A stretch of 46,071 nucleotides of DNA from Elainellaceae cyanobacterium (GCA_051117555.1 JBNPEG010000083.1:1-46071), one strand, 5' to 3'; positions 12,182 to 41,453 are shown, counted from the stretch's first letter. Made by a program: numbers and translations. Notes: a model not told the origin generated them from the letters alone.

Positions 12182-15100
12182 TTATCGAATCGATTCAACT
12201 TCACGGGTCGATGTCACCATTTCTTCAAGGGAGCGGAGTAAATTTTGTTCGTTGTAGGGTTTAGAGAAATACGCGGATGCTCCCAGGCTGATTGCGAGTT
12301 GGCGATGCTTTTCTCCACTTCGAGAGGTCAGCATAGCAACCGGGATATGTTGATAGTCTGCATTTGATTTAATTCGGGCTAAGAATCCATAGCCGTCTAG
12401 CCGAGGCATTTCGATGTCGCAAATCACTGCGTGTATATCTAAGCCGCCAAATAGTTTATCGATGGCATCTTGTCCGTCTTTAGCTTGTTCGACTCGGTAT
12501 CCTGCTTTTTCCAGCGTCAATGCTAGGAAACGGCGAACGTTCACCGAGTCATCCACGATTAGGATGGTGGGTTCTTGATTGATGGGAACAGCGGGAGGAA
12601 GCTCTGGTAACGCGGGCTCAAAGGTCGATGGAGGATACGAATCTGGCAGCATCGGCATCAGGGAGTCGGCCTGACGAGCGTCTATACTGCGCGATCGCTC
12701 GTCACTCGCAATCCAATGCAGTAATTCTGGAATATTGACGAGGGGAACCACTCGACCGTCACCCAAAATCGTGCAGCTACTGAAGCCATCGGGTAGAGGA
12801 AGATTACCTTCAACTTTACGAATTGCCACTTCTTGCTCACCCCAGCAGCGCTCAACCTCAACGCCCATTAGCTGATTGCCATGGCTGACAACGAGCAAGG
12901 TAGGCGTGCTGATAGACGGCAATGCTTCCATTTTGTCGAGCGATCGCGGGCAGTTGAATTTGAGAAATTTCTTCAGGCGAACCACTTGCACCATCTGGTC
13001 TTGCCAGCTAAGCACCTCAGTGCCTGCTGTTTCGATGATGTATTCTGGCTGGAGCACAATCATCTCTTCGATGACATCCGTCGGGAATGCCAGCAACATC
13101 GAATCTGTTTCTGCCAGGAGGATGCGAGCTACTGAGAGAGTAAACGGCACCGAGAGCGTAAATGTGGTGCCAACTCCAGTTTGGGTATCGACTTTGATAT
13201 CGCCTCGGATTTGCTTGAGGCGATCGCGCACGACATCCATGCCGACGCCTCGACCCGATAGATCGGTCACATTACTCGTGGTGCTAAATCCGGGTTCAAA
13301 AATTAGCGAGATCAGCTCTTCGTCACTCGCGGCGGCAAGGAGCATTTCATCGAGCCCCATCTGCCGAGCGCGTGACCGAATTTTGTCAAGCGGAATCCCC
13401 CCTCCATCATCTCGAATCGTAATCAGCGTCCGATTATTGCGATGGGTAGCGCGAATTTCAATCAGCCCTTGTTCGGATTTACCGTGACGAAGCCGCGTGT
13501 TTTGATCTTCAATGCCGTGATCGAAGGCATTACGAACCAGATGCATCATCGGATCATTGATGGCTTCTAAAATATTGCGATCGATGAGGGTATTAGCGCC
13601 ATAAATTTTGAGATCAACGGGCTTATTATGCTTTAGAGATAGCTCACGAAGTGCTCGAGGAAATCGATCGACCACATCAGAGAGGGGCCGCATTCGCACT
13701 TGCGTGAGACGAGTCTGAAGCTGTTTTGCGGTTTTATTGAGCCCTCGGAAGGTTTGTTCTGTATCTTCTAAATTAAGGTCAAAATCACTCGTCACCTCTT
13801 GAATTTGAACAATAGTTTCCATCATTTCTTGAGACAGCAGATGGAGATCGTCGTATCGATCAAATTCGAGGGAATCAAACCCATTGCTGTGATGATCATC
13901 GGGGCGATCGCCCGGCGGTGGCGACCTAAAATCTGACGAATAGGGTGGAGACGATGACGTGCTTGATGAGTTCGCATGAGACGCAAACGCTAACTTAGGC
14001 CCAGAAACGTGATCATAGGTAGTCCGCAACCGAATATTTGACTGTTCGAGGGTTTGGACACGATATTTCAAGGTTGTTAACAATTCTCGCATCCGCTTGA
14101 TATGCAAATCCAATCCGTTTCGCTCAATCGTCAGCTCACCGAACAAGTCGTTAAGCTGATTGAGTCGCTGGACGGGCACGCGAACCGTCGTTTCTTGGGT
14201 TTCGCTGTCGTCATGTCGAGGCCCCGAATCAGGTTTAACTTCCACAACTTTGTGGGGATTAGCCTGGAAGTCGGGCGTAGGCGCATGAGCCGCAACTGGA
14301 TACGCATCGGAGTGAACAGAGCTAGAAATCGACGTTTCCGATGTCGAGAGCTCGGCTAAATGCCAGTCCTCATCAGCGGCAGTAACCGCTGGTTCGGACT
14401 CTGAGACATCTGAATAATCGTCAGGTTCAGATTCATCTGACGAGGTAACTTCATCATCTGATGAGAAATAGTGATCCGCTGACGAGATATAGTCATCAAA
14501 TGTTTCGGGGGCGTCAGGTTGAGCAAATTGAATGACATTTTCTAACGGGATGTCATCTATGTCTACGCCATCTTCTACGCCACCTTCTACGCCACTGAGA
14601 CGGGTCGGCAACTCGGCAATGTTACCGGTCAAGACGAGCGCCTGTGATTGCCTCCACGACCGAAGCGCCGACTGAGCCAGATCTTCAATATCGTCGGGCA
14701 TAGTTTGCAACTGGTGTGTAACAGAATCACACAGTTGGCTAAATGCATTCAACTGAAGCATTTCACCCAATCCGCCCAGTTCTTGCGCCAAGATTTCAAG
14801 TTCTTCCCGAAGACAGGGATCTTGATTTTCCAAGACGGATTCAAGGCGTTGCAGACAGCCTTCGACTTCAGTCTGGAAAAATAGCGGAATCACATCTTGA
14901 CCGTCTTCTGGGGACAAGATGGATGCGGCATCTTCTGCTTGGGGTTCTCCCAATCGTTCATGCAGTTGATTAAATACGTCTCGCGTCTGACGGTCTAGCC
15001 AATCAGCATCCGGAGATGTTCCTTGGCGATCGCACTCGATAATCGTTTCTAGACAATCCACGCCAGTCAACAACAGATGCTCCAGCGTGGAGTCCACATT

Positions 15101-15352
15101 AATAGCATTTTTCTGCGTCTTGAGAACCTTGAATGAATCTTCTAATCGATGAGCCAGGCTACTTAAGATTTGATACCCCATCATACCCGCCCCTCCTTTG
15201 ATGGAGTGAGCGGCTCGCAACGCAGCATTAATCGCTTGAATGTCAACTCCTCGACTTGATAATCCGAGCAAGGCTGCTTCTATTGTGCTGAGATACTCCC
15301 GTGCTTCATCTAGAAATTGGAGCCGGATTTCAAGTTCCTTATCATTCGACAT
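12182..15352 (-). CDS. cheA: Hybrid CheA histidine kinase/receiver (PixL/PilL-like)
   Basis: Hpt RAAHSIKGGA, HLVRNAFDHGIE, DDGGGI, GFST..SGRGVGMDVV, CheW domain, C-terminal receiver (IVDDS, CDIEMP, SKP); start MSNDKE at 15352. Confidence 0.96.
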   Translation of the reverse strand: MSNDKELEIRLQFLDEAREYLSTIEAALLGLSSRGVDIQAINAALRAAHSIKGGAGMMGYQILSSLAHRLEDSFKVLKTQKNAINVDSTLEHLLLTGVDCLETIIECDRQGTSPDADWLDRQTRDVFNQLHERLGEPQAEDAASILSPEDGQDVIPLFFQTEVEGCLQRLESVLENQDPCLREELEILAQELGGLGEMLQLNAFSQLCDSVTHQLQTMPDDIEDLAQSALRSWRQSQALVLTGNIAELPTRLSGVEGGVEDGVDIDDIPLENVIQFAQPDAPETFDDYISSADHYFSSDDEVTSSDESEPDDYSDVSESEPAVTAADEDWHLAELSTSETSISSSVHSDAYPVAAHAPTPDFQANPHKVVEVKPDSGPRHDDSETQETTVRVPVQRLNQLNDLFGELTIERNGLDLHIKRMRELLTTLKYRVQTLEQSNIRLRTTYDHVSGPKLAFASHANSSSTSSSPPYSSDFRSPPPGDRPDDHHSNGFDSLEFDRYDDLHLLSQEMMETIVQIQEVTSDFDLNLEDTEQTFRGLNKTAKQLQTRLTQVRMRPLSDVVDRFPRALRELSLKHNKPVDLKIYGANTLIDRNILEAINDPMMHLVRNAFDHGIEDQNTRLRHGKSEQGLIEIRATHRNNRTLITIRDDGGGIPLDKIRSRARQMGLDEMLLAAASDEELISLIFEPGFSTTSNVTDLSGRGVGMDVVRDRLKQIRGDIKVDTQTGVGTTFTLSVPFTLSVARILLAETDSMLLAFPTDVIEEMIVLQPEYIIETAGTEVLSWQDQMVQVVRLKKFLKFNCPRSLDKMEALPSISTPTLLVVSHGNQLMGVEVERCWGEQEVAIRKVEGNLPLPDGFSSCTILGDGRVVPLVNIPELLHWIASDERSRSIDARQADSLMPMLPDSYPPSTFEPALPELPPAVPINQEPTILIVDDSVNVRRFLALTLEKAGYRVEQAKDGQDAIDKLFGGLDIHAVICDIEMPRLDGYGFLARIKSNADYQHIPVAMLTSRSGEKHRQLAISLGASAYFSKPYNEQNLLRSLEEMVTSTREVESIR

Positions 15353-15692
15353 GGGTTTATACCACTCCGTTATTGGGTCGCCGCAAACAGCCTGAGCAAA
15401 GGCTAGTATTAGAGGTTGTCCCAGGCATCCTGCCCCTTGCCCTATATCTGAGGGATTTCGATGCCCATGACAATATCCCTGGAGTCTTCGTGGCTGCATC
15501 CTGCTTTTCTGGTTCTAGAAGGAAGTGAAGATCTGCACCTCCGCCAACTAGACGCACATAAAAATGCCAAAGATGTAGATGGATAGATCGGGCCAGAGTC
15601 ATCGTAGTGTTTGGAAATGTTGGGCATGGGATCGCCATGCCCATTAACTGCAGAAATCAGGATGATGCAACACAACTACTCAATCTCACGCA

Positions 15693-18600
15693 TTAGGTCT
15701 GTGCATCAGGTCCGACTTTGAATGTTTCAACAGATGCCTGCAATTCTTGGGCAACTTTGACTGTATTGTTCAAAGAACCTGACATAATTCGAGATGACGT
15801 AGAGGTCTGCTCGGAAATTTGGGCGATGTCTTTCATCAGTCGAGACACAACCTCAGACGTTTCCACCTGAGACACGGTTGCATCCGAGATAGACTGCACC
15901 AGCTGATCGATTTGTCGAGACACATTAACGATTTGATTCAAGCTTTGTTTGACATCATCGACGAGTCGCGTTCCTTCGACCACTTGTGAGGTGCTTTGTT
16001 CCATCGCAGATACGACTTCGCTTGTCTCTAGCTGAATATTGGCAACGATTTTCTCAATTTCTTGAGTCGCATTTGCAGAGCGTGCTGCGAGTTCGCCCAC
16101 CTCTTCTGCAACGACAGCAAATCCTTGCCCTTCCTCTCCAGCGCGGGCGGCTTCAATTCCGGCATTGATCGCTAGTAGATTGGTCTGGAGAGCAATTTGG
16201 TTAATCAGCGAGACAACCTTTGAAATCTGCTGAGACGATTCACCCAAGCGTTTTACTTTTTTAGCAGTTTCAGCAACCGTTTCTCTGAGGCCGAGAATAT
16301 TTTGCACCGTCAAATCCATGACCGCTCCACCCGTTGTCGCAGTATCCGAGGCTTGGTGAGCCACGAGAGCTGCTTGTCGAGCGCTATTAGCAACTGCCTG
16401 GATAGAGGTTGTCATTTTTTCAACGGAGGCAAGCGTGCGGGTCGTGTCTTCGGCTTGCTTCAGTGCTGATTCGGCAAGATTGCGAATTTCACCTTCGTTT
16501 TCGCCTAACGACACGTTCACCTGTCCAGCGGCTTGTTTAACCTGGACTACAATTTGCCGCAAACTTTCTACGATGGAGTTGAAGAAATCTGCAACAATTC
16601 CAATTTCGTCGGCAGTGACTTCAGCACGAACCGTCAAATCACCTCTAGCAGCATCCTCGACATCTCCAAGCAGATTGATTAACTGTTTCTGGAGGGCTTC
16701 TTTTTGCTGCTGCCGTTCTTCGGAGAGCGCCTCAGCTTCTAGGCGGGCTTTTTCTCGTTGTTTGAACAAATTGGATTGTTCGACAGCAAACCCAATCTGA
16801 ACAGCCATCTGTCGGAAGAAGGTGATCTCCACGTCTTTCCACTGCCGAGGCTCTGAGCACTGATGCCCAACAAACAGACCCATCAAATTGTCAGCGACTA
16901 GAATGGGCGCAACTACACTTGCTTTGACATCAAAGGGTTCGAGCTGGCCTCGATAGCACAGGTCGATTTTTGACTCGTTTATATTTTCGATAGTCTGGAC
17001 ACGCCCTTGCTTGTACTTCTCGACGTAGTTTTCTGCAAAACACGGGTCGTTGATATTGGCGCCGAGAGCGGCTGGGAATTTCTTGTCAACCGATTCCGCG
17101 GCAACAGTACCTTGCCATTTTTCGTCGAACAGATAGATGATGGCTCGATCAAGGGCGATCGCCTCTCGTACACCCTTCAACGCTACATCATAGATTTTCT
17201 CCTGGTCTAGCGTTTGTCGCATGCGAGACGTGATTTCGTTAAGCTGTCGTTCAAACCGAGCTTGCAATTGCTGACGGTTAAACAATTCAGATTGTTCGAG
17301 CGTAAATCCGAGCTGAGTTGAAATTTGGCGGAAAAAGCTTATTTCTGACTCTTGCCACTCACGCGGCGCTGAACACTGATGCGCCACGAGTAAACCCAGT
17401 AGATTTTTGGCAACTACGATGGGAGCTACGATATTGGCCTTCACCTTGAAGGGCTCAAGCTGCCCTCGATAACACGAATCAATCTCTGCGGTTTGAATAT
17501 TATTGATGGTCTGGACACGCCCTTGCCTATACTTCTCGACATAATCTTCTGCAAAACAGGGGTCATAAATGTTAGCGCCAAGGGCTGCCGGAAACTCCCT
17601 GCTCACTGACTCCGCTTTGATAGATCCTTTCCAGTTTTCGTCAAACAGGTATACTACGGCCCGATCAACGGCGATCGCCTCTCGCACACCTTTCAGAACC
17701 ACATCGAAAATCTGCTCCCGATCGAGAGACTGGCGCATCCGGTAGGTGATTTCATTCAGTCGACGTTCAAACTCACCTTGAATGCGCTGCCGCTGGATCA
17801 ACACCGCCTGGTTTAATGCACTCCCCACCTGCGTGGCTAACTGGCGCATCGTATTGATTTCAGATTCTTTCCAAATACGCGGACCACTACAGTGATGAGC
17901 ACACAACAAGCCAATGAGCTCACCCGCAATTACCAGCGGGGCAACAATATTTGCCCTGACCTGCAACCGCTCTAAGATGGCGCAATGACAGTCCGTGAGA
18001 TCGGCTCTAGAGACATTATCAATGCTTGATACTCGACCTGTCCTATAGCGCTCAATAGCCCCAGGAACGAGGGGATCTTCAATACGTTGTCCGATCGCTG
18101 AGGGCCAGCCTTGTTCGACCGATTCGGCGGCAATAACGCCACTTTCATATCCAGGATTAAATCGATACAGCAACACGCGATTCGTCTGGAGAACCTTCCG
18201 GACTCCATCCACAGAGCGCTGCAAAATCTCGTCATAGTCAAGGGTTTGGCGTAAGCTATTGCTGACGTCTGCCAGCATTTGGGCGAGTCTTGCTTCAAAT
18301 TCTTTCTCTTGAGACGAGATGATTCCTGAGAGTGCCAGTCCGGTCTGATCGGCAAGCTGCTTGAGATAATCAATTTCTAATGGCTTCCAAATCCGCGTCC
18401 GAGAACATTGGTGGGCAACAAGAATACCCACTAGGGTATTGCCTGCCACGATGGGCACTACTAGATTAGCTTTAACGCCCAGCCCAGCCAGCAAGGCTTT
18501 GTGTTCGGGAGAATAGGTTGAGGACTGCACGTCACTGGTGGGCACAACCCGACCTCGACGATACTCATCCAACAACTGTCTTGGAATACATGCATCTGAA

Positions 18601-20333
18601 ATGTTTACTTCCAAGGCAAGGGGCAAGCCGGGGTCAGCCGCTTCTGCGACCACACTACCCCCCGATACGCGGTCGAAGCGATAGACCACGACGCGATCGG
18701 CGAGAAGCTGCTTTTTGGCAACTTGAACCACTTGGTCAAATACATACTGAGTATCGCCTCGGTTTGCAGCATTGGCCAAGCCTGTATAAAACTGAGATTG
18801 CTCTAGGGCTGAGGCTTGAGCTGCAAGGGATGCTCTCACCCGATTGACCAAAGAATTGAAGCTACTTGCAAGAGTTTGAACTTCGGTGTTGCCTTTAACA
18901 TCTGCATAGATATCAAGATTTCCTACAGCCGCTTGGTCAGCAATGCTAGCAAGTTGAGTCAGCGGTTTGGATATATGTCGGGCTGATCGCATCATGACCA
19001 ACGCCGATACAGCGCCCACTACCACAAACGCTAAGGCAAACAGCGTTGCTACATTTCGTCCGGCGGCTGCGATTTCGCTTTGATCCGCGGATGCAACCGC
19101 AATCCAATTGGTGCCTGGGATGCTTGCAAAAGTATACTCTCGCCCACCCTCTTTCAACGTGCTCACTAAGGCGGGTTGCCCAGTCTCGGCTTGCGCGTCA
19201 GAGGCAACCGTGGTCACAGGAAACTGGGCATTGCTAGCCGCTGCTTCTAGTCCGTCGGGCTGATTGGTTAGCAGATTGGCGATCGCAGCTGCCCGTTCAC
19301 GAACGACGTCTCCGCCCACGATTTCTTGGTTCTGAGCAACCCCTTCGCCGCTCAACGTTGTGACCGGAATGGCTCGGTTCTCACTATCAAATGCGATGAT
19401 TTGAATTTGTTCAGAGGTTAGCTTGCCTCCATCTTCGATGAACGTCAGGACTTTGTTAAAAAATTCGGTCGGCACCACTGCCTTGACCGCTCCCAAAAAT
19501 TGCCCTGAAGCTGGATCAATAATAGGCTTAGCAATTTCAAAGCCAATGGTGTTAGACGACTCATCAAAGACAGGCTCTAGGATTTGCTGTTCCCCATTTT
19601 GGGCTCGTTGCCACCATTCTTCATCACGCTGGACAAAGTCTGACGTGGAATTGCTATAGGCCAAATTAAAGCCGTTTTTATCTGTAAAAAATAGTTCGGC
19701 AACCCCGCCAATTTCAGCAGACTGTCTGAGATAGTCGTTCAGCCGTTGATTAGGACGCAGCAAACGACTCTGAGCAAACCGCTGCTCAGCTTCTTCAACC
19801 GACAGTTGTTCAAGCCCTTGATAGCGAGAAAATTCGATGGCGCTGCGGCTTTCTTCAATAACTGCCGGATTAGCAGCAACTAATGCCGGAATTTGTTCTG
19901 CTTCGTCGATCAGTCCTTGAGTGGCTTCACCAATTCCTTGGGCTTGTCGTTGTAAGAGTTGGCGACTCTCTTGCGACGATTGGTGGGACGTGATGAGATA
20001 TCCGAGCGCACCTGCGGCCGCGACTGGGACTAGCACCCCCGGCACAACTCGTGTGACAAGCTGACGACGAAGTGACGCCTGGCTTTGCTGCTTCTCCCGG
20101 AGTTCTTTAAACGGATCGGCGATCGCGCCGTTGTCGGATGCTTGCACCGAGGAATTTAGAGGGGTTTGAAGAGAGTTAAGATGTCCATTTTGGGATGCAT
20201 CCAATTTGGTCTCCTGAGTGTAGAGGGAGTGATTCATACTGCTTTGACGGGGTGACTGAGTCGGAGGCAAAGAATTTGACCGATGGTCGTCGCTCTCGTT
20301 TGAGTTGTTGATGGCATCAAGTCGGTTCACCAT
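15693..20333 (-). CDS. pixJ: Cyanobacteriochrome methyl-accepting phototaxis receptor: TM-dCache-TM-HAMP, 4 GAF, MCP signal domain
   Basis: Two hydrophobic segments, dCache-like DEEWWQ, four GAFs (DACIP/PEH; DPLV/CH; DPCF/CY x2), MCP hairpin [30 protein letters not shown]. Confidence 0.93.
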
Positions 20334-20390
20334 GGGTTAAATCTCATATCGATAAGGGACGGTCGGGGCATGAGTGATAGCTCAAAACCC

Positions 20391-20888
20391 TTAATACTGC
20401 TGCAGGATAGGCGATTGAACAATAGCTTCCGCATCGAGAACCAGCACAATTTCCTGCGGTTGTAAGACACACCCTCGAAGATATGGGACGAGTGCCGGAG
20501 TCACTTGTCCGAGTGGAGACTGAATCACATCTTTTTGTATCCATCGAATGCCTTCGATGCGCTGTACTGCTAGTCCAAGCGGCACAGAACCGACCTGAAT
20601 CATGACTAGGCTGTACTGCTGTACGGATGGATTGAGGCGAGAAATACCCAGCATTAATGCTAAGTCAACAACCCAGACGACGCGGCTGCGCCGATTCATC
20701 AACCCCAATAAGCATGTCGACATATTAGGAATTGGAGTCAATCGATGAGCCGGTAAAACAATCGCTTCCTGGACGTGATCCATCGAAAAGCAAGCGGGCA
20801 CTTTCTGTCCGAGTTGAAATTTTAGATGAGCATCTCCAGTCGCCTTCTGTGATTGGCTTTTGGTAAATGCGAGTGCAGTATGTTCCAT
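20391..20888 (-). CDS. cheW: CheW (PixI-like)
   Basis: TPIPNM..CLLGLMN.RSRV.WVVDL, LGLAV, LVLDAEAIV; ATG at 20888. Confidence 0.92.
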   Translation of the reverse strand: MEHTALAFTKSQSQKATGDAHLKFQLGQKVPACFSMDHVQEAIVLPAHRLTPIPNMSTCLLGLMNRRSRVVWVVDLALMLGISRLNPSVQQYSLVMIQVGSVPLGLAVQRIEGIRWIQKDVIQSPLGQVTPALVPYLRGCVLQPQEIVLVLDAEAIVQSPILQQY

Positions 20889-20892
20889 AGCG

Positions 20893-21270
20893 TTAGCCTG
20901 CAACTAATTTCACAGCACGAATAAGTTGCTCACGGGTAAATGGCTTGGTGACGTAGGCATCAGCACCTTGCTTCATCCCCCATAGGCGATCGATTTCTTG
21001 ATTTTTAGACGTACAAATTACAATGGGTACTTTTTCGGTTACGGGATGCTTTTTGAGACTGCGGCACAATTCAAACCCGCTCATGCCTGGCATGACTACA
21101 TCGGTCACAATCACATCAGGTCGTTGTTCAATAGCAATATTTAAAGCTTCTTTAGCACTGACTGCACTAATGACGTTATACCCACTCTCACGCAAATAAT
21201 GGCTCATCAGTTCCATCTCAGAGAGGGTATCTTCAACAACTAGGATTGTGCCCATCAATGTTACGCTCAT
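20893..21270 (-). CDS. pixH: CheY-like single-domain response regulator (PixH/PilH-like)
   Basis: ILVVED, TDVVMP, CTSK, DRLWGMKQGADAYVTKPF. Confidence 0.92.
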   Translation of the reverse strand: MSVTLMGTILVVEDTLSEMELMSHYLRESGYNVISAVSAKEALNIAIEQRPDVIVTDVVMPGMSGFELCRSLKKHPVTEKVPIVICTSKNQEIDRLWGMKQGADAYVTKPFTREQLIRAVKLVAG

Positions 21271-21502
21271 CACTGAATAATCCTTAGAATCAACACACAG
21301 AAATGCTTGCAAAAAAGTAGATGCAAAGGGTTCAGATTTGCATCGTTGAAATAAAGAAACGGATTGATAGTGCCTTTACATGATTTACGTCTCAACCTGA
21401 ATAAAAATCCTAAACAGTTATGCTCTAACGCTAAAATCCGTTTCAAGCTGAAACAAAGATCATTTCAAACCTGGAATGGATGATTAGCTGTCTCTAACGT
21501 AA

Positions 21503-21612
21503 CTAGTACAAGATGGCGGACGTTTCATACCCGTAGTGTGAGCGAGTCGCTCACGTCGCGGGCAAGATGCCCGCACTTAAATGTTTGGCTTATTTTTGCC
21601 ACACAGTACTAG
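21503..21612. mobile_element. Putative MITE with CTAGTAC...GTACTAG termini carrying two REP-like hairpins, between pixG and pixH
   Basis: Inverted termini CTAGTACaaGaTGGC versus reverse complement CTAGTACtgtgTGGC; interior GTGAGCGAgTCGCTCAC and GCGGGCAagaTGCCCGC. Confidence 0.6.
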
Positions 21613-21620
21613 GGCGATCG

Positions 21621-22721
21621 CTACGTTAAGTGCTTGAATACCATCTTGAGTAAATCTGACTGGGTGAACGGCTTTGTCAGATAGCCCGATGCTCTCACCA
21701 GCTTTGCCTTAGCTCGATCGATAAAGCCTGTATTTCCAGTCACCATGATGATAGGCGTATTTTTAAATGATGGATGTCGTCTCAAAAGAGAACACAACTC
21801 ATATCCATCCAAGTTCGGCATTTCAACATCCAAAAGAATCAGATCTGGCTTGTTTCGAACAATTTGCATGAGCGCCTTGACCGGATTATTAATCATCAAC
21901 ACCGAGAAGCTCTTGTCTTCCAAAAAAGAATTGATGGCGTTTAGAACCGTGGGACTATCGTCAATACAGGCAATTTTGTAAACTGTTTTCGCTGCCCCCG
22001 CAGCATTTTCTTGAGCTGGATAGCCAGGGATAGGGCTATTCATCGGTTCAGCCACCCTATTTTGAACAGGGTTGACTGGAGTTGGACTAGGGGCGGGGGC
22101 AGGATTGACGGCCGGAGACTTAAAGTTGCTGGGTTGAACGAGTGGATTAACCGGTCGAGTCGGAGTTTGGATGATTTGACGAGACGATTTGCGCTGCCGC
22201 AATTGCGCCTGACAATATTCGACAAGTGGACGAATATCCAGTTGACACAGTTGGGGCATTTCCACAAACTGACCGGGTTCGATCAGCTCATAGGCTCCTT
22301 CTCGGACCAGAAGAAACGACTCGATCACCTCTTTGGCAAGGTTCTCAATGAGCAGAGTTGCCTGAGCAGAATCAAGATACTGCTGATTTACCAACCAACA
22401 AATCGCCTGATAGTCCGGTACGTAAGTAGAGTCCACATCAACCGAGCGCTCAAACAGCAACCGAACTTGCACCCGAACTGCACTAACTAGGCTAGGCACC
22501 TGGTTGTTGAGTCGGCGCAAATATTGATCAAGTCGTCCAAAGGGGTCAACCGAATTGGTCGCATAGGTAAGCTTTCCCTGCTCTAAATAAAACGTCCAAG
22601 ACGCTGCATCATTAAATACCTGTAAACAACCGCTAGCCTGTCGACTCGTTAACTGTGCAAGTAAGCTCAGCGGATGCAATCTTTGAAACGATCTGTGGCT
22701 AACCATAGCGGCAGTATTCAT
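21621..22721 (-). CDS. pixG: PatA-family response regulator (PixG-like; PATAN domain plus receiver)
   Basis: N-terminal PATAN-like domain (SGCLQV, GKLTYA, DYQAICWLV), Pro-rich linker, receiver (CIDDS, LDVEMP, GYLTKPF). Confidence 0.9.
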   Translation of the reverse strand: MNTAAMVSHRSFQRLHPLSLLAQLTSRQASGCLQVFNDAASWTFYLEQGKLTYATNSVDPFGRLDQYLRRLNNQVPSLVSAVRVQVRLLFERSVDVDSTYVPDYQAICWLVNQQYLDSAQATLLIENLAKEVIESFLLVREGAYELIEPGQFVEMPQLCQLDIRPLVEYCQAQLRQRKSSRQIIQTPTRPVNPLVQPSNFKSPAVNPAPAPSPTPVNPVQNRVAEPMNSPIPGYPAQENAAGAAKTVYKIACIDDSPTVLNAINSFLEDKSFSVLMINNPVKALMQIVRNKPDLILLDVEMPNLDGYELCSLLRRHPSFKNTPIIMVTGNTGFIDRAKAKLVRASGYLTKPFTQSDLLKMVFKHLT

Positions 22722-24108
22722 TGGTCTCTACTCCGGCTTCAGTTCATCAACTCCGATATACGCTCAGGACTTGGTAACGAGTTGGGACTCATAATAGCCC
22801 CACACAGTCGTTGGGAACACAAATCCATACAAGATTGAGCTGGGTAGGTACACCGATGATCAACACCCAAATCGATGTGCAAAACCGTTTAGGTGGCTAA
22901 AAATATTCAGGCGAGTAAACTTGGCATTTACTGAGCACGCACGTCTGGCAAACTCACATCCAATCATTTATATGTGCAGTGAGGTAACGCGAGATCCGGA
23001 ACAAATAATCCATTCGGCATCTAATTAACGCCCATGAACTGATACTTCCAAATCAAGGCAATGCATGCTAATCGACTGAAATATTGGCTTGATAGATACT
23101 CTAAACGAATGCTCTTTAGTAACAGATGAATGGCTATTTGCTGACTGTAGCCAAATGATAGATGGTGCTACCCCTGATCCATCTCCAAGTTTTCGCTTAC
23201 AAGCTGGTCAAAATCTCGCAAGCCTTGGTGCAATCCTCAAAAACTTGAGCAGGTCAGTTGGTATGAGCTAGCAATTTCCCAGTTGATATTGAGACTAACA
23301 GATTGATTTAACAAAGTGGGTGAAGGGGACATGAAGAATATATAAAAATCGAAACAAGCTGCATTCGTGAGTTCTCAAGGGTTTCAGGTTAGAAATGAAT
23401 CTCAAACGGGTGGATAAATACGGCAGGTGCGATCGCGTAGCGTGCAACACACATGACTGATGATTTAACTCAGGGCGAATGGCCGAAACGTGCCGCAAAT
23501 TGGGGTTTGAAGAGATTAGATCATGGCTGAACGATCGTAAGACACGTATTACGGTGATAACACACTATTTTCTGAAGCCCCGTTTAAATGAAGTCACGAA
23601 ACGCTAAATTTATGCGAGCTTCAAGTTTGAATGAAGAAAGAATTAAGCTGCGTCGGTTTTGTGACAAAATCCAACATTTTGGGGCGATCGCCTGTAGAAC
23701 TAGGGGTCAGGACGGCTAAAATCGCTCTAACTGTGAATGGATTTGATATAGATTCTGATGCAGAGAGAATCGCCGCCCATCATCCAATCAGTCAATGCCG
23801 GAGTTGATAGAAAGATTGAATCGTTCATTTAGGTCGTTTTCTAACGTATGTTTAAAAAGTCGATTGCGTGTTTGATAAAGGCGCGCCGAATGAATACATG
23901 CGCAAAACATACCCAAGCTGGCTCAATCTTATGGGCCTAGATTTGGCGAGCGTGTTAGCAGCAGTTTAACTTACAGCAGTATGCCATCAGATGTAATACA
24001 ATACGTCATCAAATATTGCTCGACTCAGAATTCTTTACTGTAAGTTTGATATCGTTGTGATTATTTTATAGACGCTAATATTCACTAAAGGATTAACCTC
24101 TTAAGACG

Positions 24109-27100
24109 ATGACTAGCAAAGTCATGACCTTCCGGTTCCCACAACGGCTAGCTGAGACTATTGTTTCATTGGCAGAAGAGACAGGCAAAGGCAAGACCGC
24201 AATTGTAGTAGACGCTTTGAATCGGGCTCTTGAGATTCCGCCTGAGCCAGCCGACCCCGTGATAGAACCGCTCAAGCGGCAAATTTCTCAACTGGCTCAG
24301 CAGGTCGAAACTCTCTCTGATCAACTGGGTGACATTCAACAGCAGACGTTAGACGAACCAGATTTACCAGATTTACATCGATTCAACTCACTAGAGCATG
24401 CGGTTGATTCCTGTCGAGAGGGTGATGATATGCAGGTTGGCGCTGATGCTCTACCTATCATGTCACAGACACGTGATGCCAGTATAAGAGGCGGTGAGAG
24501 TGGCAGCGTGAGTTTGCAGGGTAATCGAGCCGAGACGCCGATCGAGCTTGATACCTCAGCGAATTCTTCAGAGTCTTCAGACGGCGAGAACCGTGAACTT
24601 CTTGACCGCATCGCGTATCAGTCAGCAGTTCTCGATCAAATTCTCTCGGCATCGCCAGATTTATTCTTTGTGCACGATCGATTTGGTCGATATACCTATG
24701 TGAACCCCGCTGGAGCCAGAGCACTCGGTTTTGAGCGAAGCTATTTTTTAGGGCGAACGATTCGAAATTTAGAGGTGGCTGCCGACTTCCTGGAACCGTT
24801 TGCGCTTCAATATGAAGCGGTATTGACAACAGGGCAGCCTGCCAGCGGTGAAATCAGCATTCCAACCATCAATGGAGCTCGAAATTATGATTATATTTTG
24901 AGCCCAGTCCAGGGAACGAATAATACAATTAACTCCGTTGTTTGTATTGCGCGTGATATCACTGAGCGGAAACAGGCAGAAGCATTTCTGCGAGACTCAG
25001 AGGTCAAATATCGTAATTTGTTTGAATCTGCGAATGATTCGATCTTTATCGTCGATGCAATTACCCATCGATTCCTAAACGTCAATTGGAATGCAGCACG
25101 GCGATTAGGATATACCCGACAAGAACTGCTAAAGCTTTCAATTTGGGATATTGATCAATCGGCTTCAGATGCTCGAAATAAATCCCTGGTGCGATCGCTG
25201 CTGGCGGGAGGACACCTCATTCTAGAAACAACGTTTCAGTGTCGAGACGGCACTGAACTGCCTGTCGAGGTTAGTAGCTGGGTAATTGAGTACGGCGATC
25301 GCCTCGCGTTTCAGAGTTTTGCCCGTGATATCAGCGATCGCAAGCGAGCAGAAGCAGAAATTCGGGCACTCAACGCTGACCTAGAGCAACGGGTGAATGA
25401 TCGCACCGCCCAGCTCCAGCAAACGAATATTGAGTTGGCCAACGAAGTTGCAGAGCGGCAACAGGCAGAAATCGCGCTCAAGCAGGCAGAAGCCAAGTAT
25501 CGCGGTATTGTCGAGAATGCCGTCATCGGGATTTTCCAAACCACGCCCCAAGGTCGATATCTAAGCGTCAACCCGACGATGGCGCGCATCTACGGATATG
25601 ATTCTCCAGACGAGCTGATGAGCCAGTTAGTCGACATTGAGCATCAGCTCTATGTCGACCCCAATCGCCGGATTGAATTCATGCGATTGATGCAAGAACA
25701 TAATACTGTTCAAAACTTTGAATCGCTGGTGCGGCGCAGAGATGGCAGCACTATCTGGATTTCTGAAAATGTCCGAGCGGTTCGTGATGAAGACGGGCAG
25801 GTTTTATTCTACGAAGGCACAACCCTTGATAATACTGACCGCAAACGCAATGAGGAGGAGCTGCAGCGACGCTGGGAACGAGAGCAGATTACTCGGGCGA
25901 TCGCCCAACGCATCCATCAATCCCTCGACTTAGAGCAGATTTTAAATACCAGCGTCACAGAGGTACGGCAGTTCTTGCAGGTCGATCGGGTCCTCGTTTA
26001 TCGGTTTGAATCAGAATATATTGGGCGTGTCAGCGTTGAATCTATCAGTAACGAATGCTTCTCAATTTTAGGATCTCAGGTCGAAGATTCATGCTTTGGC
26101 AACGACTTGATTGAACGCTATCAGCAGGGATATGTTTCAGTCATTCAAGATGTCCGCGCTGAAGAGTTGCATCCGTGTTATGCCAATCTCCTAAACTCAT
26201 TTCACGTCAGAGCAAATCTAGTGGTTCCGATCGTGCAAGGGGATGGCTTCTGGGGGTTGCTGATTGCCCATCATTGCACTGCGCCTCGGTCATGGGCTCT
26301 TCACGAAATTGAACTTCTCAAACAACTATCAACCCAATTAGGAATTGCGACTCAGCAAGCCGAGCTTTATCAACAGGTCAGTACCGAGCTTCATGAACGC
26401 AAATTAGTAGAATCATCGCTCCGGGACAGTGAAGATCGCTATCGCTCTCTGATTACCGCCATGGCAGAGGGCGTCATTTTGCATCAGGCTGATGGTCAAA
26501 TTATTGCCTGCAACGCCAGCGCAGAACGTATTCTAGGACTCTCCGAGGATCAGCTGATGGGGCGGACTTCGATTGACCCTCGCTGGCAAACCATTCGTGA
26601 GGATGGTACGCCATTTCCTGGGCAAGAACACCCCGCTATGGTGACGCTCAACACGGGAGAGCCTCAAGCCAATGTGGTCTTTGGAGTTCATAAACCCACG
26701 GGAGAACTAACCTGGATTCAAGTCAACTCGCAACCTGTGTTTAACGAAGGAGAACCACAACCTATTGCAGCAGTCATCTCGTTTTCAGATATTACAGAAC
26801 AGAAACAGATTGAAACTGAGAAACGACAGGCTGAAGAGGCGATCGCCAAGCGAGAACAATATCTGGCTGACCTGGTTGAGGTTCAGCGGCGTTTACTTGC
26901 CCTAAAAGTAGATTGCCAAGCGCCTTACGATGAAGTACTAGAAATTTTGGGAAACGTGTCGGGGGCGAGCCGAGTCTATGTCTTTGAAAACCAGCTCTGC
27001 GATGATGGACATGTGATCACCAGTCAGGTAGCAGAATGGTGTGCAGACGGCATTCAACCCGAAATTCATAATCCCGACTTACAACAATTGGCGCTTGACG

Positions 27101-27762
27101 ACTGTTTGCCTCGATGGGTGACTACATTAAAAGCAGGCCACATCATTGCAGGAATTGTCGACGACTTTCCAGCGTCAGAAAGCCTCCTTCTTAAACCTCA
27201 AGGGATTTTATCGATTCTAATTTTGCCGCTGATGGTCAACGATGAATTCTTCGGCTTCATTGGCTTTGACAATTGCGTGGATGCTCGAGAGTGGGAATCG
27301 TCTGAAATTGATTTGCTAAGGGCTGCAGCAACTGCAATTGCGTTATGGCAAGAGCGGATACAAATTGAAATTGATCTGCATAACAGTGAAGAAAGATATG
27401 CTCTTGCTGCCAGTATTAGCAAAACAGGCGTTTGGGATTGGAATCTGGAAACTGACGAAATGTACTTATCATCTGATTTGAAAGCCATGCTGGGCTTTAC
27501 CGATCAAGAAATCCCCAATCATATTGATGCCTGGCTCCAGCACGTGCATCCTGATGATCGGGACCACGTGATGGCTGAGGCAACGGCCCACCTAGAAGGA
27601 CGCAAACCCTACTACGAAGTTGAGCGTCGTATGGTGCATAAAGACGGAAGCATCCGCTGGTTTTTGGTTCGCGGTGTAGCCGCCCGCGATGAAACGGGGA
27701 AACCCTACTGCATGATGGGCTCAGATACAGATATTACCCACTTAAAAGAAACGCCATTATAA
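24109..27762 (+). CDS. RHH-like N-terminus + PAS x3 + DXCF cyanobacteriochrome GAF + PAS + GAF + PAS; no C-terminal kinase or cyclase domain
   Basis: N-terminus KVMTFRFPQRLAETIVSLAEETGKGKTAIVVDALNRAL; PAC ends DITERK/DISDRK/DNTDRK/DITEQK/DITHLK; GAF with DSCF and CY; ends TAA TAG. Confidence 0.85.
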   Translation: MTSKVMTFRFPQRLAETIVSLAEETGKGKTAIVVDALNRALEIPPEPADPVIEPLKRQISQLAQQVETLSDQLGDIQQQTLDEPDLPDLHRFNSLEHAVDSCREGDDMQVGADALPIMSQTRDASIRGGESGSVSLQGNRAETPIELDTSANSSESSDGENRELLDRIAYQSAVLDQILSASPDLFFVHDRFGRYTYVNPAGARALGFERSYFLGRTIRNLEVAADFLEPFALQYEAVLTTGQPASGEISIPTINGARNYDYILSPVQGTNNTINSVVCIARDITERKQAEAFLRDSEVKYRNLFESANDSIFIVDAITHRFLNVNWNAARRLGYTRQELLKLSIWDIDQSASDARNKSLVRSLLAGGHLILETTFQCRDGTELPVEVSSWVIEYGDRLAFQSFARDISDRKRAEAEIRALNADLEQRVNDRTAQLQQTNIELANEVAERQQAEIALKQAEAKYRGIVENAVIGIFQTTPQGRYLSVNPTMARIYGYDSPDELMSQLVDIEHQLYVDPNRRIEFMRLMQEHNTVQNFESLVRRRDGSTIWISENVRAVRDEDGQVLFYEGTTLDNTDRKRNEEELQRRWEREQITRAIAQRIHQSLDLEQILNTSVTEVRQFLQVDRVLVYRFESEYIGRVSVESISNECFSILGSQVEDSCFGNDLIERYQQGYVSVIQDVRAEELHPCYANLLNSFHVRANLVVPIVQGDGFWGLLIAHHCTAPRSWALHEIELLKQLSTQLGIATQQAELYQQVSTELHERKLVESSLRDSEDRYRSLITAMAEGVILHQADGQIIACNASAERILGLSEDQLMGRTSIDPRWQTIREDGTPFPGQEHPAMVTLNTGEPQANVVFGVHKPTGELTWIQVNSQPVFNEGEPQPIAAVISFSDITEQKQIETEKRQAEEAIAKREQYLADLVEVQRRLLALKVDCQAPYDEVLEILGNVSGASRVYVFENQLCDDGHVITSQVAEWCADGIQPEIHNPDLQQLALDDCLPRWVTTLKAGHIIAGIVDDFPASESLLLKPQGILSILILPLMVNDEFFGFIGFDNCVDAREWESSEIDLLRAAATAIALWQERIQIEIDLHNSEERYALAASISKTGVWDWNLETDEMYLSSDLKAMLGFTDQEIPNHIDAWLQHVHPDDRDHVMAEATAHLEGRKPYYEVERRMVHKDGSIRWFLVRGVAARDETGKPYCMMGSDTDITHLKETPL

Positions 27763-28171
27763 TAGCTGCGCGATCGCTCAGTTTTGACCGAGGTTATGAC
27801 TAGCTTCATAATTTGATCCCGTTTCATAACGACTGCTTAACCAATGACACCTGATAGGAGCGTTATAATCAAAGCAATATAAGCTGTAGTGTTTGCTACG
27901 GTTTGTGTTTTTTTGTCTGACTAGTCTGCATGGTAGGTGCGTTGCTGATGAATAGCCAATCTTATACATCTCGTCGTCTTCATTCGTCTGAAGTGTCACC
28001 CTTCCCTTCTGACGAGAACTTTGACTTTTCCCTGTGGTCACGGTTGGTGAAAGAGCAAATGGTGTCGACTCTACAAAAACGCCAAAAAAATCGCTAAATT
28101 TTTGATTTCTTTCATTTATAGCAATGCGCGCTTGGGTTAAGTTGACGACTCCAAGACAGCCGGGTTTAGTG

Positions 28172-28213
28172 AACAGCCGCAGCATATTAAATTCTGCGGC
28201 TGTTTGTTTTTTT
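28172..28213 (+). terminator. Rho-independent terminator
   Basis: 11-bp stem AACAGCCGCAG/CTGCGGCTGTT followed by TGTTTTTTT. Confidence 0.75.
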
Positions 28214-34935: not shown

Positions 34936-37275
34936 TTAATACCTCTCCCAATACGGCTGAAAGCCCCGCCGTCGAAGAAAATCAACCTGAAGCCGGTCGA
35001 TACGATCGTCTAAAACAGGGTCAGAGATCCCCTGAGCATCGTGTTCGTCCTGTAACTCCTCCAGTCGTCGCAGGGCGGTTAAGGGTTCGCCTTGGGCAGC
35101 ACTCAGTTCTGCAAGAATGCGACGGGTTTCTAAATCATTGGGCTGGAGGGTCAGCACTCGTTCATATAAGCGTTCGGCTTCAGCATAGTTACGCTGCTGG
35201 AAGCGAACGCCACCCAAAGCAGCAAGCGCGTCCGGATTGTCCGGCTCTTGGTTGAGAATGACTTGATAGGCATCCGCAGCTTGGTCAAGGTCATCGAGCT
35301 GCTGTGCCAGTTCACCCTGCACAAAGTAGACAGTGATGTCATCAGGATTTTCGCTAATCAGCTGATCGACTCGGGCTTGAGCCTGAGCGGGGTCACGACT
35401 AGCGATTAATTGAATTTGGCGCAGATTAATGGCAAGGCTATCCGGGTTAGCATCAAGCAACCGTTGATACAGTGATTCACGCTCAGGGCTAGGCGGCAGC
35501 GCGCCGACCAAGCTATACAGTTCGGGAGGAAGAGCCGTCGGGGGCTGGGTGGCAAGCCAGTTGTCTAATATTGCTTCGGCGTCGGATTCGGAAATTTGCC
35601 CCATGCGATAGACGATGCTAGCCCGACCGAGCTGAAACGCCAGATTATCGGGATTGCGCACTATGAGGTCGTCGTAGATTTCGAGGGCAGTGCCAAGCCG
35701 CCCCTGAGCCACTCGAATCCCCGCTAACCCACGCAGCGCATCATTCAAAATAGGAGCAGGCGGATTGCTGCCAATCAGCGTTTCATATTGGCGAGCGCTG
35801 GCATCGAGGTTGCCCGATCGCCGTTCGATTTCGGCTTGCAGCAGCCTCGCCGAGAAATTGGGCTGCTCATAGGCTGCGGCTTCATACTCAGCAAGGGCGT
35901 CCCGGGCTGCGTTGTAGTCGCCCTGCTGGAGATACATTTGAGCCATTCGGTAATAGAGAAACGGCACGTCGCTGTCCGCCGCCACCCGTTCACTCACCAG
36001 TTGTTGATACAGGGGCAACAGGGCCGGATCCGGTGAATCAAACGGCACTAGAGCCAGGGCGATCGCCCGCAATTCTGATGAGTTTTCTGGAAGCGATCGC
36101 CCGATATCTTGCAGCTCATTAACCAGCGCGGTGCGGGAGAGTTCGCCGAGCTGATATTCCAATAGCAGCCGTTTGACTAGCAGGCTAGTGTCATCAGGCT
36201 GCCGTTCCAAAAGTTGGCGATATATTTGCAGGGCATCTGCCTGGGTCGATGGCGACTCGCTCAATACATCGGCTGCCTCGCGCAACAGACCAATTGACGG
36301 TGTTTCAGTCTGGCTTAAAATTTCTCGATAGAGGTCAATTGCTTCGTCATAGAGGTCTTGATCGCCGGTTTGGCGGGCAATTTCGCTGAGCGATCGCGCC
36401 AATGATAGTCTCGAATCGCCTCGGCTGCGTAAGGGGGCTAGGGTGGCGATCGCCTCATCTGGCTGTCGATTAGCTGCATAGGCAACGGCCAGGGCAGAGC
36501 GAATTTCTAAAGTCGTCGCATCAACCTGCTGACGGTCTCGCAGTCGCGTGCTGAGAATCTCGACGGCTTCATCCGCACGTCCGGTTTCGCGCAGCGCCAG
36601 GGCATAGGCAACGATCGCGCGATCGGGAATTCGAGCGATATCCTGATATTGCTCGAATAAAGCGAGTCCACGCTCGTAGGCTCCGCTAAAGACATAGCTT
36701 TGAGCCGCTTCGAGAATGATATCCGGAGCGGCATTCTCAGCCAGCAAGATCTCATAGTCTGCAATTGATTCGGCAAATTGCCCCTGGTAGCGCAGCAGTA
36801 GCGCTCGCCGGGCTCGTGCCTCCGCATTATCGGGGTCAAGGCTGAGCAGCGTCGTCAGTGCCTCAATGCCCTGGGCTTGCCACTCAGGGCGATATCCGCC
36901 CAGCAAACCGATGGCAGTGAGGGCTTGGCGATTGGTTGAATCTTGCGCCAACACCTGTTGATAGGCTGCCCAGGCATTGGCGTCTTGTCCAGCTCGCTGA
37001 TAGGCGATCGCCAGTCCTAGCTTTGCATCTAGAGAGTTAGGATACCGACGCACCGCCTCTCGAAACGCGGCGATCGCATCATCAACCCAGCCTCGATTTA
37101 ACAAGTCATAGCCTCGACTGACCGCCGCAGGCATCGACTGCGCGTACGCTGGATGCAGGCGTAGGCTAACTGGAGCCGCCAACACTCCCAGCGACAGGCT
37201 AAGCGAACCTAGCCCGATTAGAATAATTCGCATCCAGTCTTTATTACGGTTTACGTGCGTCCACTGATTCATCAA
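34936..37275 (-). CDS. Secreted/periplasmic TPR protein (resembles the BcsC N-terminal region, no beta-barrel)
   Basis: Signal peptide ending AYA; many TPR-like helical repeats; ATGA overlap with the upstream porin gene. Confidence 0.8.
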   Translation of the reverse strand: MMNQWTHVNRNKDWMRIILIGLGSLSLSLGVLAAPVSLRLHPAYAQSMPAAVSRGYDLLNRGWVDDAIAAFREAVRRYPNSLDAKLGLAIAYQRAGQDANAWAAYQQVLAQDSTNRQALTAIGLLGGYRPEWQAQGIEALTTLLSLDPDNAEARARRALLLRYQGQFAESIADYEILLAENAAPDIILEAAQSYVFSGAYERGLALFEQYQDIARIPDRAIVAYALALRETGRADEAVEILSTRLRDRQQVDATTLEIRSALAVAYAANRQPDEAIATLAPLRSRGDSRLSLARSLSEIARQTGDQDLYDEAIDLYREILSQTETPSIGLLREAADVLSESPSTQADALQIYRQLLERQPDDTSLLVKRLLLEYQLGELSRTALVNELQDIGRSLPENSSELRAIALALVPFDSPDPALLPLYQQLVSERVAADSDVPFLYYRMAQMYLQQGDYNAARDALAEYEAAAYEQPNFSARLLQAEIERRSGNLDASARQYETLIGSNPPAPILNDALRGLAGIRVAQGRLGTALEIYDDLIVRNPDNLAFQLGRASIVYRMGQISESDAEAILDNWLATQPPTALPPELYSLVGALPPSPERESLYQRLLDANPDSLAINLRQIQLIASRDPAQAQARVDQLISENPDDITVYFVQGELAQQLDDLDQAADAYQVILNQEPDNPDALAALGGVRFQQRNYAEAERLYERVLTLQPNDLETRRILAELSAAQGEPLTALRRLEELQDEHDAQGISDPVLDDRIDRLQVDFLRRRGFQPYWERY

Positions 37276-40637: not shown

Positions 40638-40700
40638 AATTTTGAACTCGACACGGCTTATAGCTGTTGATTTCTATTAATGCGACTATTTGTAGTCTCT

Positions 40701-41453
40701 ATGCATAAATTTGTTCTCTCATTGACTGGGCTTATTTGCGTTGGCAGTCTGATGCTGTCATCCAGCGGATGCTCTCGCGTACGCTTCCTGCTGCCGGGTC
40801 AGCAGTTTTCTGATGTCTCGATTGGCATCCAAGTCGAACCCCTGCAAGCTGGACGCTATCGTCTCTATGGCACTGCTGACTTACCCAACCAGACTGACTT
40901 AGCCGTGGCTGCCGTCCGCTATCTGCGCCCTTCATCGACGTCTCACGCAGATTCCCGTCCGTCTGAGGGCGAATTGACCTATTCCATCCTCGATTATCAG
41001 GAAATTGATGTCAGCCAGAACGGGTGGGAGGTGACTCTCAATCTTTGGGAGGTTGCACCGGATGGACGCTATCAAGAAGACTGGCAAATACAACAAGAGG
41101 AGCTAGGGCTGGAATTTATTCCAGAAGATGATGTGATGTTTGTTGCCATGCCTGCACCCATCACTGCATTACCCCTCCTTGAACGACAGCTCGGACGAGA
41201 GCGATCGCGCTTTGCCAATGAACTCGTGCGATTTACGCCTGACGGTGAACGCTATATCCAAGTCAGTTTGGCAGAAGCCGTTGACCTACCCACCGGACAA
41301 ACCACTCCGCCCGTCTTAGAGCCTCAAGATATCAATGGCGGCTGGGGCGATCGCTATGTTCTGTACCCCGAACCTCAAACCGATGTTGAGTTAGAAATGC
41401 CTGACCAACGACGAACCAACGCACCGCCTTCTCCCGAAGAATTTTTGCGCTAG
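40701..41453 (+). CDS. Hypothetical lipoprotein
   Basis: From ATG 40701 (alternative 40680): basic residue, hydrophobic stretch, then lipobox-like SSGC; 250-aa ORF. Confidence 0.7.
   Translation: MHKFVLSLTGLICVGSLMLSSSGCSRVRFLLPGQQFSDVSIGIQVEPLQAGRYRLYGTADLPNQTDLAVAAVRYLRPSSTSHADSRPSEGELTYSILDYQEIDVSQNGWEVTLNLWEVAPDGRYQEDWQIQQEELGLEFIPEDDVMFVAMPAPITALPLLERQLGRERSRFANELVRFTPDGERYIQVSLAEAVDLPTGQTTPPVLEPQDINGGWGDRYVLYPEPQTDVELEMPDQRRTNAPPSPEEFLR

Follow-up and report, generated by a model that had tools for sequence, protein, structure and literature searches.

Organization of the gene and its product

The subject of this report is a single gene in a 46,071-nt stretch of DNA from an Elainellaceae cyanobacterium (GCA_051117555.1 JBNPEG010000083.1:1-46071); this whole stretch is referred to below as the window. 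The gene, at positions 24109..27762, encodes a protein in which a predicted ribbon-helix-helix (RHH) domain and a leucine-zipper-like helix precede a long array of PAS and GAF domains, one of the latter being of the cyanobacteriochrome type. This arrangement is well supported as anatomy, and a light-gated regulator is a plausible reading of it. The gene and its parts are as follows, with positions counted from the first letter of the window.

24109..27762 (+), whole gene, 1217 amino acids, ATG start, stop codon included
24109..24240 (+), predicted RHH domain, residues 1-44 (profile, model and fold searches)
24262..24354 (+), leucine-zipper-like helix, residues 52-82 (sequence heptad and structure model)
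24367..24603 (+), short helix, residues 87-106, then a Ser/Asp/Glu-rich linker to about residue 165 (sequence and structure model)
24643..24975 (+), PAS1, residues ~179-289 (Pfam)
24991..25359 (+), PAS2, residues 295-417 (NCBIfam), a domain also present in short paralogues
25360..25488 (+), helical connector between PAS2 and PAS3, residues 418-460, helicity judged from sequence only
25495..25863 (+), PAS3, residues 463-585 (Pfam)
25927..26349 (+), GAF1, cyanobacteriochrome-type, residues 607-747 (Pfam and PDB matches)
26437..26814 (+), PAS4, residues 777-902 (Pfam)
26926..27342 (+), GAF2, a distant cyanobacteriochrome relative, residues ~940-1078
27460..27720 (+), PAS5, residues 1118-1204 (Pfam), with the end of the protein 13 residues further on

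Pfam places PAS_9 in five stretches of the 1217-residue protein and GAF in two, in the order PAS1-PAS2-PAS3-GAF1-PAS4-GAF2-PAS5, and the NCBIfam model TIGR00229 likewise matches in five stretches. Inspection of the translation by eye revealed no obvious LOV-type Cys motif in any of the PAS domains. Neither HisKA, HATPase_c, GGDEF, EAL nor MCPsignal was found by Pfam at E<=1, and neither REC nor Hpt by Pfam and NCBIfam; NCBIfam kinase and cyclase models gave partial matches only, over the PAS and GAF parts and far under their cutoffs. The TAA stop codon at 27760-27762 is directly adjoined by a TAG at 27763-27765. The initial annotation of this DNA, made from the sequence alone, had described five PAS and two GAF domains and an open reading frame (ORF) that ends right after the last PAC, at a double stop and with no HisKA, GGDEF or EAL continuation. 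The same domain counts were obtained from Pfam, and for PAS also from NCBIfam, and the described ending was found as well.

By the definition given in the available part of PMC5812497, a one-component system combines a sensor and a DNA-binding domain in one protein and has no phosphotransfer domains. Judged from its sequence, the protein fits this definition.

The N-terminal ribbon-helix-helix domain

The first 44 residues are laid out as an extended strand (residues 1-11, including R9 and P11), a helix (12-25), a turn (G26-K-G-K-T30) and a second helix (29-41). In an alignment of 46 related N-termini, R9 and P11 are invariant and F8, G26, T30 and L37 nearly so. When a profile of this family was compared with solved structures, the top three matches were the CopG-family protein 6xrw (E 8.9e-4), Mnt (0.025) and the CopG-family protein 7ak7 (0.09). 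The F-R-M-P of Mnt lines up with the F-R-x-P of the family, R9 taking the place of the Mnt arginine, and the G26/T30 stretch, with its Gly turn and a Thr opening the second helix, lines up with G-R-S of Mnt. Further, Pfam RHH_1 was matched at E<=0.1 by 28 of the 46 N-termini, and the other Pfam families matched by them are nearly all of RHH type (Arc, CopG_antitoxin, RHH_5, NikA-like, TraY, FitA-like and TacA1). Two members lie above the curated RHH_1 cutoff of 20.5 bits, namely a paralogue from the window's own genome (23.4 bits) and P0041 (26.3 bits).

An AlphaFold2 monomer model computed on the family alignment (predicted local distance difference test score, pLDDT, 86.7) has residues 1-11 extended and unpaired, followed by helices at 12-25 and 29-41 separated by a three-residue turn. 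Foldseek ranked CopG (2cpg) first for this model, with a probability of 0.97, a root-mean-square deviation of 1.0 A over 41 columns and TM-scores of 0.76/0.82; ParD, TacA, NikA, Arc, PutA, NikR and AmrZ followed, and among the matches listed almost all are RHH proteins. Similarly, in a VIA-align comparison with 48,161 chains, RHH-type proteins made up nearly all of the best 50 (Z 6.2-3.9). Residues 1-44 are thus very likely, on profile and model, to adopt an RHH fold. This call is carried by the agreement of three independent lines (family profile, structure model and fold searches) and not by single scores; it upholds the RHH pattern that had been noticed at about residues 1-42.

A Pro-rich hinge (residues 42-51) joins the RHH domain to the zipper helix, in which a heptad of a/d residues (L55/I59/L62/V66/L69/L73/I76) is visible in the translation. 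Residues 52-82 are modelled as a single helix, which agrees with the coiled coil that the annotation had placed after the RHH.

Two aligned orthologues indicate how this end of the protein evolves. The RHH domain is 100% identical to that of the same genus and 82% identical to that of another genus. Over its 44 codons there are seven synonymous and no non-synonymous differences from the same-genus copy, and the ratio of non-synonymous to synonymous substitution rates (dN/dS) against the other genus is about 0.05, with dS saturated. In the same comparison with the other genus, PAS2 is the best-conserved sensor domain (85% identity), and identity falls to 37% and 27% in two linker segments. These values of dN/dS and identity suggest that the RHH is strongly constrained and the linker is not.

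A type II RHH antitoxin was considered as an alternative identity for the gene product and was rejected. The protein is 1217 residues long, no small co-directional ORF lies downstream, and for the opposite-strand ORF of 135 residues no family match was obtained.

The GAF domains

GAF1 carries a DXCF motif, DSCF (D660-S-C662-F663, 26086-26097, +), and a canonical Cys followed by Tyr (C690-Y691, 26176-26181, +). Its closest matches among solved cyanobacteriochromes are 6oap (E 8.3e-57), the NpR3784-derived miRFP670nano (1.9e-39) and TePixJ (3vv4, 8.6e-28). C690 falls on the Cys of the 6oap ECH and on that of the miRFP670nano ECY. Where GAF1 has DSCF, DQYF or DRYF stands in these nearest solved relatives; by eye, DSCF is in register with the DPCF of TePixJ. 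Both the DXCF motif and the canonical Cys are kept in three orthologues (P0002, P0003 and P0047). GAF1 is, by its motifs and alignments, a two-cysteine (DXCF) cyanobacteriochrome domain, and it probably binds a bilin. The claim that the first GAF retains both bilin-binding motifs, DSCF and CY, was therefore sound, the two being found where they had been placed and in register with solved cyanobacteriochromes.

GAF2 is a more distant relative of the cyanobacteriochromes (TePixJ, E 2.2e-7). A Ser is aligned to the Cys of the TePixJ ECH, orthologues also have no Cys at this position, and the Cys of its DDCL is not conserved in orthologues. From these alignments GAF2 is unlikely to hold a covalent bilin.

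Orthologues, the output-less ending and a lost PAS domain

The proteins P0002 (93% identical), P0003 (66%) and P0047 all begin with MTSKVMTFRFP and end within a few residues of the end of the window protein; a fifth copy, in the same-genus genome G002, is an open frame of 1327 codons. Only PAS and GAF families were found in P0002, P0003 and P0047, and no kinase or cyclase. That the window copy might be a truncated kinase or cyclase is ruled out by these orthologues, which stop at the same place, keep the RHH and carry no enzyme domain; the possibility had been raised with the initial annotation as one that orthologues with a C-terminal kinase or cyclase would reveal.

The best 120 relatives of the sensor half (residues 586-1217) were tallied by a hand count of their domain listing. 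HisKA/HATPase_c, GGDEF or MCPsignal was present in 111 of the 120, one had REC only and eight had no output domain, four of these eight being the RHH orthologue group itself. The sensor array is thus of a kind that usually drives enzyme or methyl-accepting chemotaxis protein (MCP) modules, and here an RHH is found instead. A separate protein of 1162 residues, P0066, contains PAS and GAF domains, two of the GAFs being DXCF-like or cyanobacteriochrome-like, and has neither an RHH nor an output domain. Output-less cyanobacteriochrome arrays therefore exist also outside the RHH family.

P0002, P0003 and P0047 contain an extra PAS domain of about 110 residues between PAS4 and GAF2 which is missing from the window copy. 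This loss may be taken to mean that the window copy is a decaying gene, whose architecture has no current function. The deletion is, however, in-frame and domain-precise, the frame of 1217 codons is intact, and the first 44 codons differ from the same-genus copy at synonymous sites only; decay is accordingly a very improbable explanation. At the junction, about 26812-26817 (residues 902/903), the PAC-end motifs DITEQK.. and ..TEKRQ meet, which would fit loss of the domain by recombination between repeated motif-coding DNA.

Distribution of the RHH-zipper-PAS family

With residues 1-110 as query, HMMER returned 44 proteins at E<=0.001 from 1.84 billion representatives. Of these, one TPR protein and one coiled-coil protein were set aside as spurious, and 41 besides the query share the N-terminus. 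The 41 clusters comprise 20 proteins of 283-801 residues with RHH and PAS only, one fragment of 200 residues with a partial PAS at its end, and 20 pieces of 83-197 residues without a PAS match; no GAF or enzyme domain was found in any of them. For two family members that were checked, the public records give no other name than "PAS domain S-box protein", and neither record names the RHH.

The window's own genome (G000) contains two short paralogues of 398 and 391 residues, both with the architecture RHH-zipper-PAS-PAS, on contigs C135 (L033 3420-10238, with neighbours) and C146 (L003 242-1417). Both lie at contig ends and their counterparts are in tandem in G002, so the two are probably adjacent in the window genome. 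Fused forms were seen in four of 301 sampled genomes of the phylum, from two families, and the RHH domain in all four genomes of the window's order. In a second cyanobacterial family it occurs in 44 of 52 genomes and 22 of 24 genera (a tally that includes G307, a genome flagged as unpublished), always in open frames of 406-820 codons. Forms with GAF domains were not encountered outside the family to which the window belongs. On present sequence data the window protein is the sole GAF-bearing branch found of a small RHH-zipper-PAS family. An artefactual fusion produced by a frameshift was discarded as an explanation, because 41 clusters, and genomes from two cyanobacterial families, show the same in-frame arrangement.

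Genomic neighbourhood

The gene is divergent from a chemotaxis-like operon and convergent with a cellulose operon. The features upstream of it are the following.

12182..22721 (-), divergent chemotaxis-like operon: PATAN-REC, CheY, CheW, MCP, CheA-REC, CheW
15693-20333 (-), Cache-HAMP-4xGAF-MCP gene of the divergent operon
21621-22721 (-), PATAN-type response regulator (DUF4388 and REC), first gene of the divergent operon
22722..24108 (no strand), spacer to the divergent pixG-like operon, candidate target, 1387 bp
23273..23360 (no strand), conserved block, about 90 nt, with near identity between two genera in an otherwise diverged spacer (three spacers aligned)

One GAF domain of the MCP (within 17244-18776, -) is TePixJ-like (3vv4, E 7.4e-40), with DPCF and with Cys-Tyr in place of Cys-His. 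This DPCF GAF makes 'PixJ-type phototaxis operon' a fair label at the sequence level. The divergent operon also agrees with the tax1 cluster as described in the available part of PMC5812497. Downstream, in convergent orientation, are genes for BcsA with PilZ, BcsB, a GH8 glucanase and a TPR protein. The gene contents of both neighbouring operons are as the initial annotation had described them. The link that it drew with the phototaxis operon is strengthened by gene order. Orthologues of the regulator are divergent from a PATAN-REC, CheY, CheW and MCP operon in three genomes of two genera (the window, G002 of the same genus and G001 of another genus), and paralogues lie beside a second GAF-MCP gene. 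Linkage to the cellulose operon was found in one same-genus genome only: G002 keeps BcsB and BcsA downstream, and the G001 contig stops short of that point.

The C135 paralogue and the two tandem G002 paralogues are divergent from a HAMP-3xGAF-MCP gene. These paralogues are divergent also from a 110-residue ORF; for the one beside the C135 paralogue, neither a Pfam match at E<=1e-5 nor an NCBIfam match was obtained. In the second family, 20 loci were sampled by contig and frame size before their neighbours were seen. In six of these, representing five genera, the immediate neighbour is a GAF-bearing MCP gene in convergent orientation. Of two other loci, G005 has a GAF-MCP gene nearby and G098 has none. 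The window genome holds four MCP genes in 6.06 Mb, and by our estimate a random 20-kb stretch would hold one in about 1-2% of cases. The association of RHH-PAS genes with GAF-MCP genes is thus well above chance, though partial and seen in genomes that are related and not independent.

Several ORFs near these genes have no assigned family. A 697-residue ORF at 37272-39365 (-), the first gene of the cellulose-synthase operon, has no Pfam or NCBIfam match, and the same holds for the ORFs at 40680-41453 (+, 257 residues) and 42629-43621 (-, 330 residues). The 135-residue ORF at 27778-28185 (-), between the regulator gene and bcsA, matches no family; no ORF of at least 120 residues is found there in G002, and the ORF may not be a gene. 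In two second-family genomes a conserved ORF of 368-369 residues without a Pfam match (L030 5047-6156, +; L031 5195-6301, +) is convergent with the RHH-PAS gene and lies immediately downstream of it.

A chain leading from SesA through cyclic di-GMP (c-di-GMP) to a PilZ-cellulose-synthase is described for Thermosynechococcus in the available part of PMC5812497. By analogy with this chain the gene order at the present locus is suggestive, and no more; a switch between motility and aggregation, as proposed in the initial annotation, is speculation.

The intergenic spacer

The spacers equivalent to 22722..24108 in G001 and G002 are 1.5-1.7 kb long. The conserved block at 23273-23360 is present in a single copy in the genome and contains two TTGAT-containing words about 20 nt apart, as judged by eye. 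A structured RNA was rejected for this block: nothing in Rfam matched it above chance, and neither strand gave a fold signal (z +0.89 and +2.62). The block is a candidate for a regulatory site at the DNA level, with nothing linking it to the RHH. Promoter-like sites in the spacer number one against 3.5 expected, and no terminators were found in it. The sequencing runs listed for the window were soil-metagenome DNA, with no RNA run among them. The 40 nt before the start codon (24066-24105, TTTATAGACGCTAATATTCACTAAAGGATTAACCTCTTAA) are present as a tandem duplication upstream of the orthologue in G002 (L018).

Proposed mechanism and alternatives

The gene product would be a cytoplasmic one-component regulator. 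The RHH together with the leucine-zipper-like helix is the only candidate output and would most likely form a DNA-binding dimer or dimer of dimers. The array PAS1-PAS2-PAS3-GAF1-PAS4-GAF2-PAS5 would act as input, in which GAF1 should bind bilin and photoconvert in a two-Cys photocycle and the PAS domains may add further inputs. The signal may alter the oligomeric state, or it may mask and unmask the RHH-zipper. For comparison, EL222 releases its helix-turn-helix (HTH) domain, and Mnt depends on its coiled coil to bind as a tetramer. As targets, the likeliest would be the promoter of the gene itself and, on the far side of the 1.4-kb spacer, the divergent PixJ-type operon. On the domain composition we lean, with some reserve, towards the protein being a sensor-gated transcription factor.

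Several observations weigh against this interpretation. The N-terminus of the window protein, taken alone, falls under every Pfam RHH threshold; its best match, of about 17 bits (E 0.12), is to PSK_trans_fac, which we take to be an RHH-clan family and which has a cutoff of 28.3. A single-sequence PDB search with residues 1-110 returned chance-level matches only (DDX47 at E 0.023 and designed helical repeats). The Foldseek E-values are all at least 0.2, and the VIA-align Z does not exceed 6.2, under the tool's caution line of 8; these modest values follow from a query of only 49 residues. Further, the spacer contains no direct repeat of the kind typical of RHH operators and only one inverted pair of 12 nt, separated by 902 nt, and the spacers of orthologues and paralogues share no word of at least 10 nt. 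Tyr691 stands after the canonical Cys of GAF1 in place of the usual His. Tyr is also found at this position in miRFP670nano and in the neighbouring PixJ-type GAF, and by this comparison it need not block bilin binding. Conservation is poor over the 85-120 residues between the zipper and PAS1, where the model also has low confidence, and no structural path is evident from GAF1 to the RHH, which lies over 540 residues from it. With so long and poorly conserved a tether, a rigid helical relay is unlikely. Finally, 14 of the 20 sampled second-family loci have no MCP gene within 10 kb, and the adjacent MCP genes in that family, being convergent, do not suggest a shared promoter.

The first of these observations, and the absence of operator-like repeats from the spacer, would also fit a protein in which residues 1-44 have an RHH-like fold and serve as a dimerization module only, with no DNA-binding role. 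Such a module would be redundant beside a zipper that already dimerizes. R9, aligned to the Arg of the Mnt FRMP, is moreover invariant in 46 of 46 N-termini, and the G26...T30 turn is kept, so that dimerization alone appears improbable.

The long flexible linker speaks against tight allosteric control of the RHH and bears on another possibility, namely that the protein signals mainly by PAS/GAF protein contacts (with the Pix array, PATAN regulators or c-di-GMP enzymes) and that the RHH only autoregulates or tethers the protein to the nucleoid. The convergent arrangement with the MCP gene in the second family fits such a partnership better than promoter control, and P0066 is an example of a PAS/GAF array with neither RHH nor enzyme domain. 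However, few parts of the protein are as well conserved as the RHH, which is also the one feature common to the 41 clusters; this would be unexpected for an accessory, and no partner was identified. We consider signalling mainly by contacts unlikely, if still worth attention.

Returning to the sensor-gated transcription factor, its possible targets are less secure than its anatomy. That the target is the promoter of the gene itself or the pix operon is a tentative proposal, about which we have some doubt. A more extended proposal is that the protein is the first natural bilin photoreceptor that itself binds DNA, that the colour state of the DXCF domain alters oligomerization or exposure of the RHH-zipper and thereby sets transcription of the PixJ-type operon, and that the family as a whole are dedicated regulators of cyanobacterial photoreceptor-MCP genes. 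In this complete form the proposal is rather unlikely to hold.

If true, a cyanobacteriochrome wired straight to a DNA-binding domain would represent a shorter path from light to gene. Such a protein could serve as a compact, colour-tunable optogenetic switch consisting of a single protein. The position of RHH-zipper-PAS genes beside photoreceptor-MCP genes further suggests an unstudied regulatory layer of cyanobacterial phototaxis.

Comparison with known systems

In the available part of PMC5812497, one-component photosystems are described as coupling a photoreceptor to second-messenger enzymes (citing Savakis 2012 and Enomoto 2014). A full-text literature search, with subscription literature and domain-architecture databases outside its reach, returned no paper combining a cyanobacteriochrome with ribbon-helix-helix or CopG. 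The literature found for ribbon-helix-helix and PAS contained, judging by titles, none on such fusions, and that on cyanobacteriochrome, one-component and DNA-binding consisted, again by title, mostly of reviews and optogenetics papers. Both parts of the protein are of known kinds; their combination and the RHH-zipper-PAS family appear to be undescribed.

CopG, Arc and Mnt resemble the window protein in having a strand-helix-turn-helix of about 45 residues at the extreme N-terminus. With Mnt there is further agreement in the strand Arg of F-R-x-P and in the Gly-containing turn before the second helix, and in Mnt, too, a coiled coil follows on the C-terminal side. Unlike the window protein, in which the RHH is followed by a PAS and GAF array of over 1100 residues, these proteins have 45-90 residues and no sensor array. 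NikR and PutA, both among the fold matches, are closer in layout, each carrying an N-terminal RHH output on a larger signal-sensing protein. The sensor is a nickel-binding domain in NikR and consists of proline dehydrogenase domains in PutA; neither protein has PAS, GAF, a photoreceptor, a zipper or a long linker.

On the sensor side, GAF1 resembles TePixJ and the NpR3784/6oap group in its full-length alignment, its D-x-C-F and its canonical Cys. The window protein differs from DXCF cyanobacteriochromes in having no kinase, GGDEF or MCP output, in carrying an RHH at the opposite end and in having Tyr for His. PpsR/CrtJ is likewise a multi-PAS protein with a DNA-binding domain, and its model TIGR02040 gives a partial match over PAS2 (E 4e-17). 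This match reaches 62 bits against a cutoff of 275 bits, and in PpsR the HTH is C-terminal and there is no GAF.

The nearest counterparts in principle are EL222 (LOV-HTH) and the aureochromes (bZIP-LOV), which combine a photoreceptor, a flavin-binding LOV domain, with a DNA-binding domain in one polypeptide. The aureochromes resemble the window protein also in that the DNA-binding part is N-terminal to the sensor. Whereas these systems pair a flavin LOV with an HTH or bZIP, the protein described here would pair a bilin-type GAF with an RHH.

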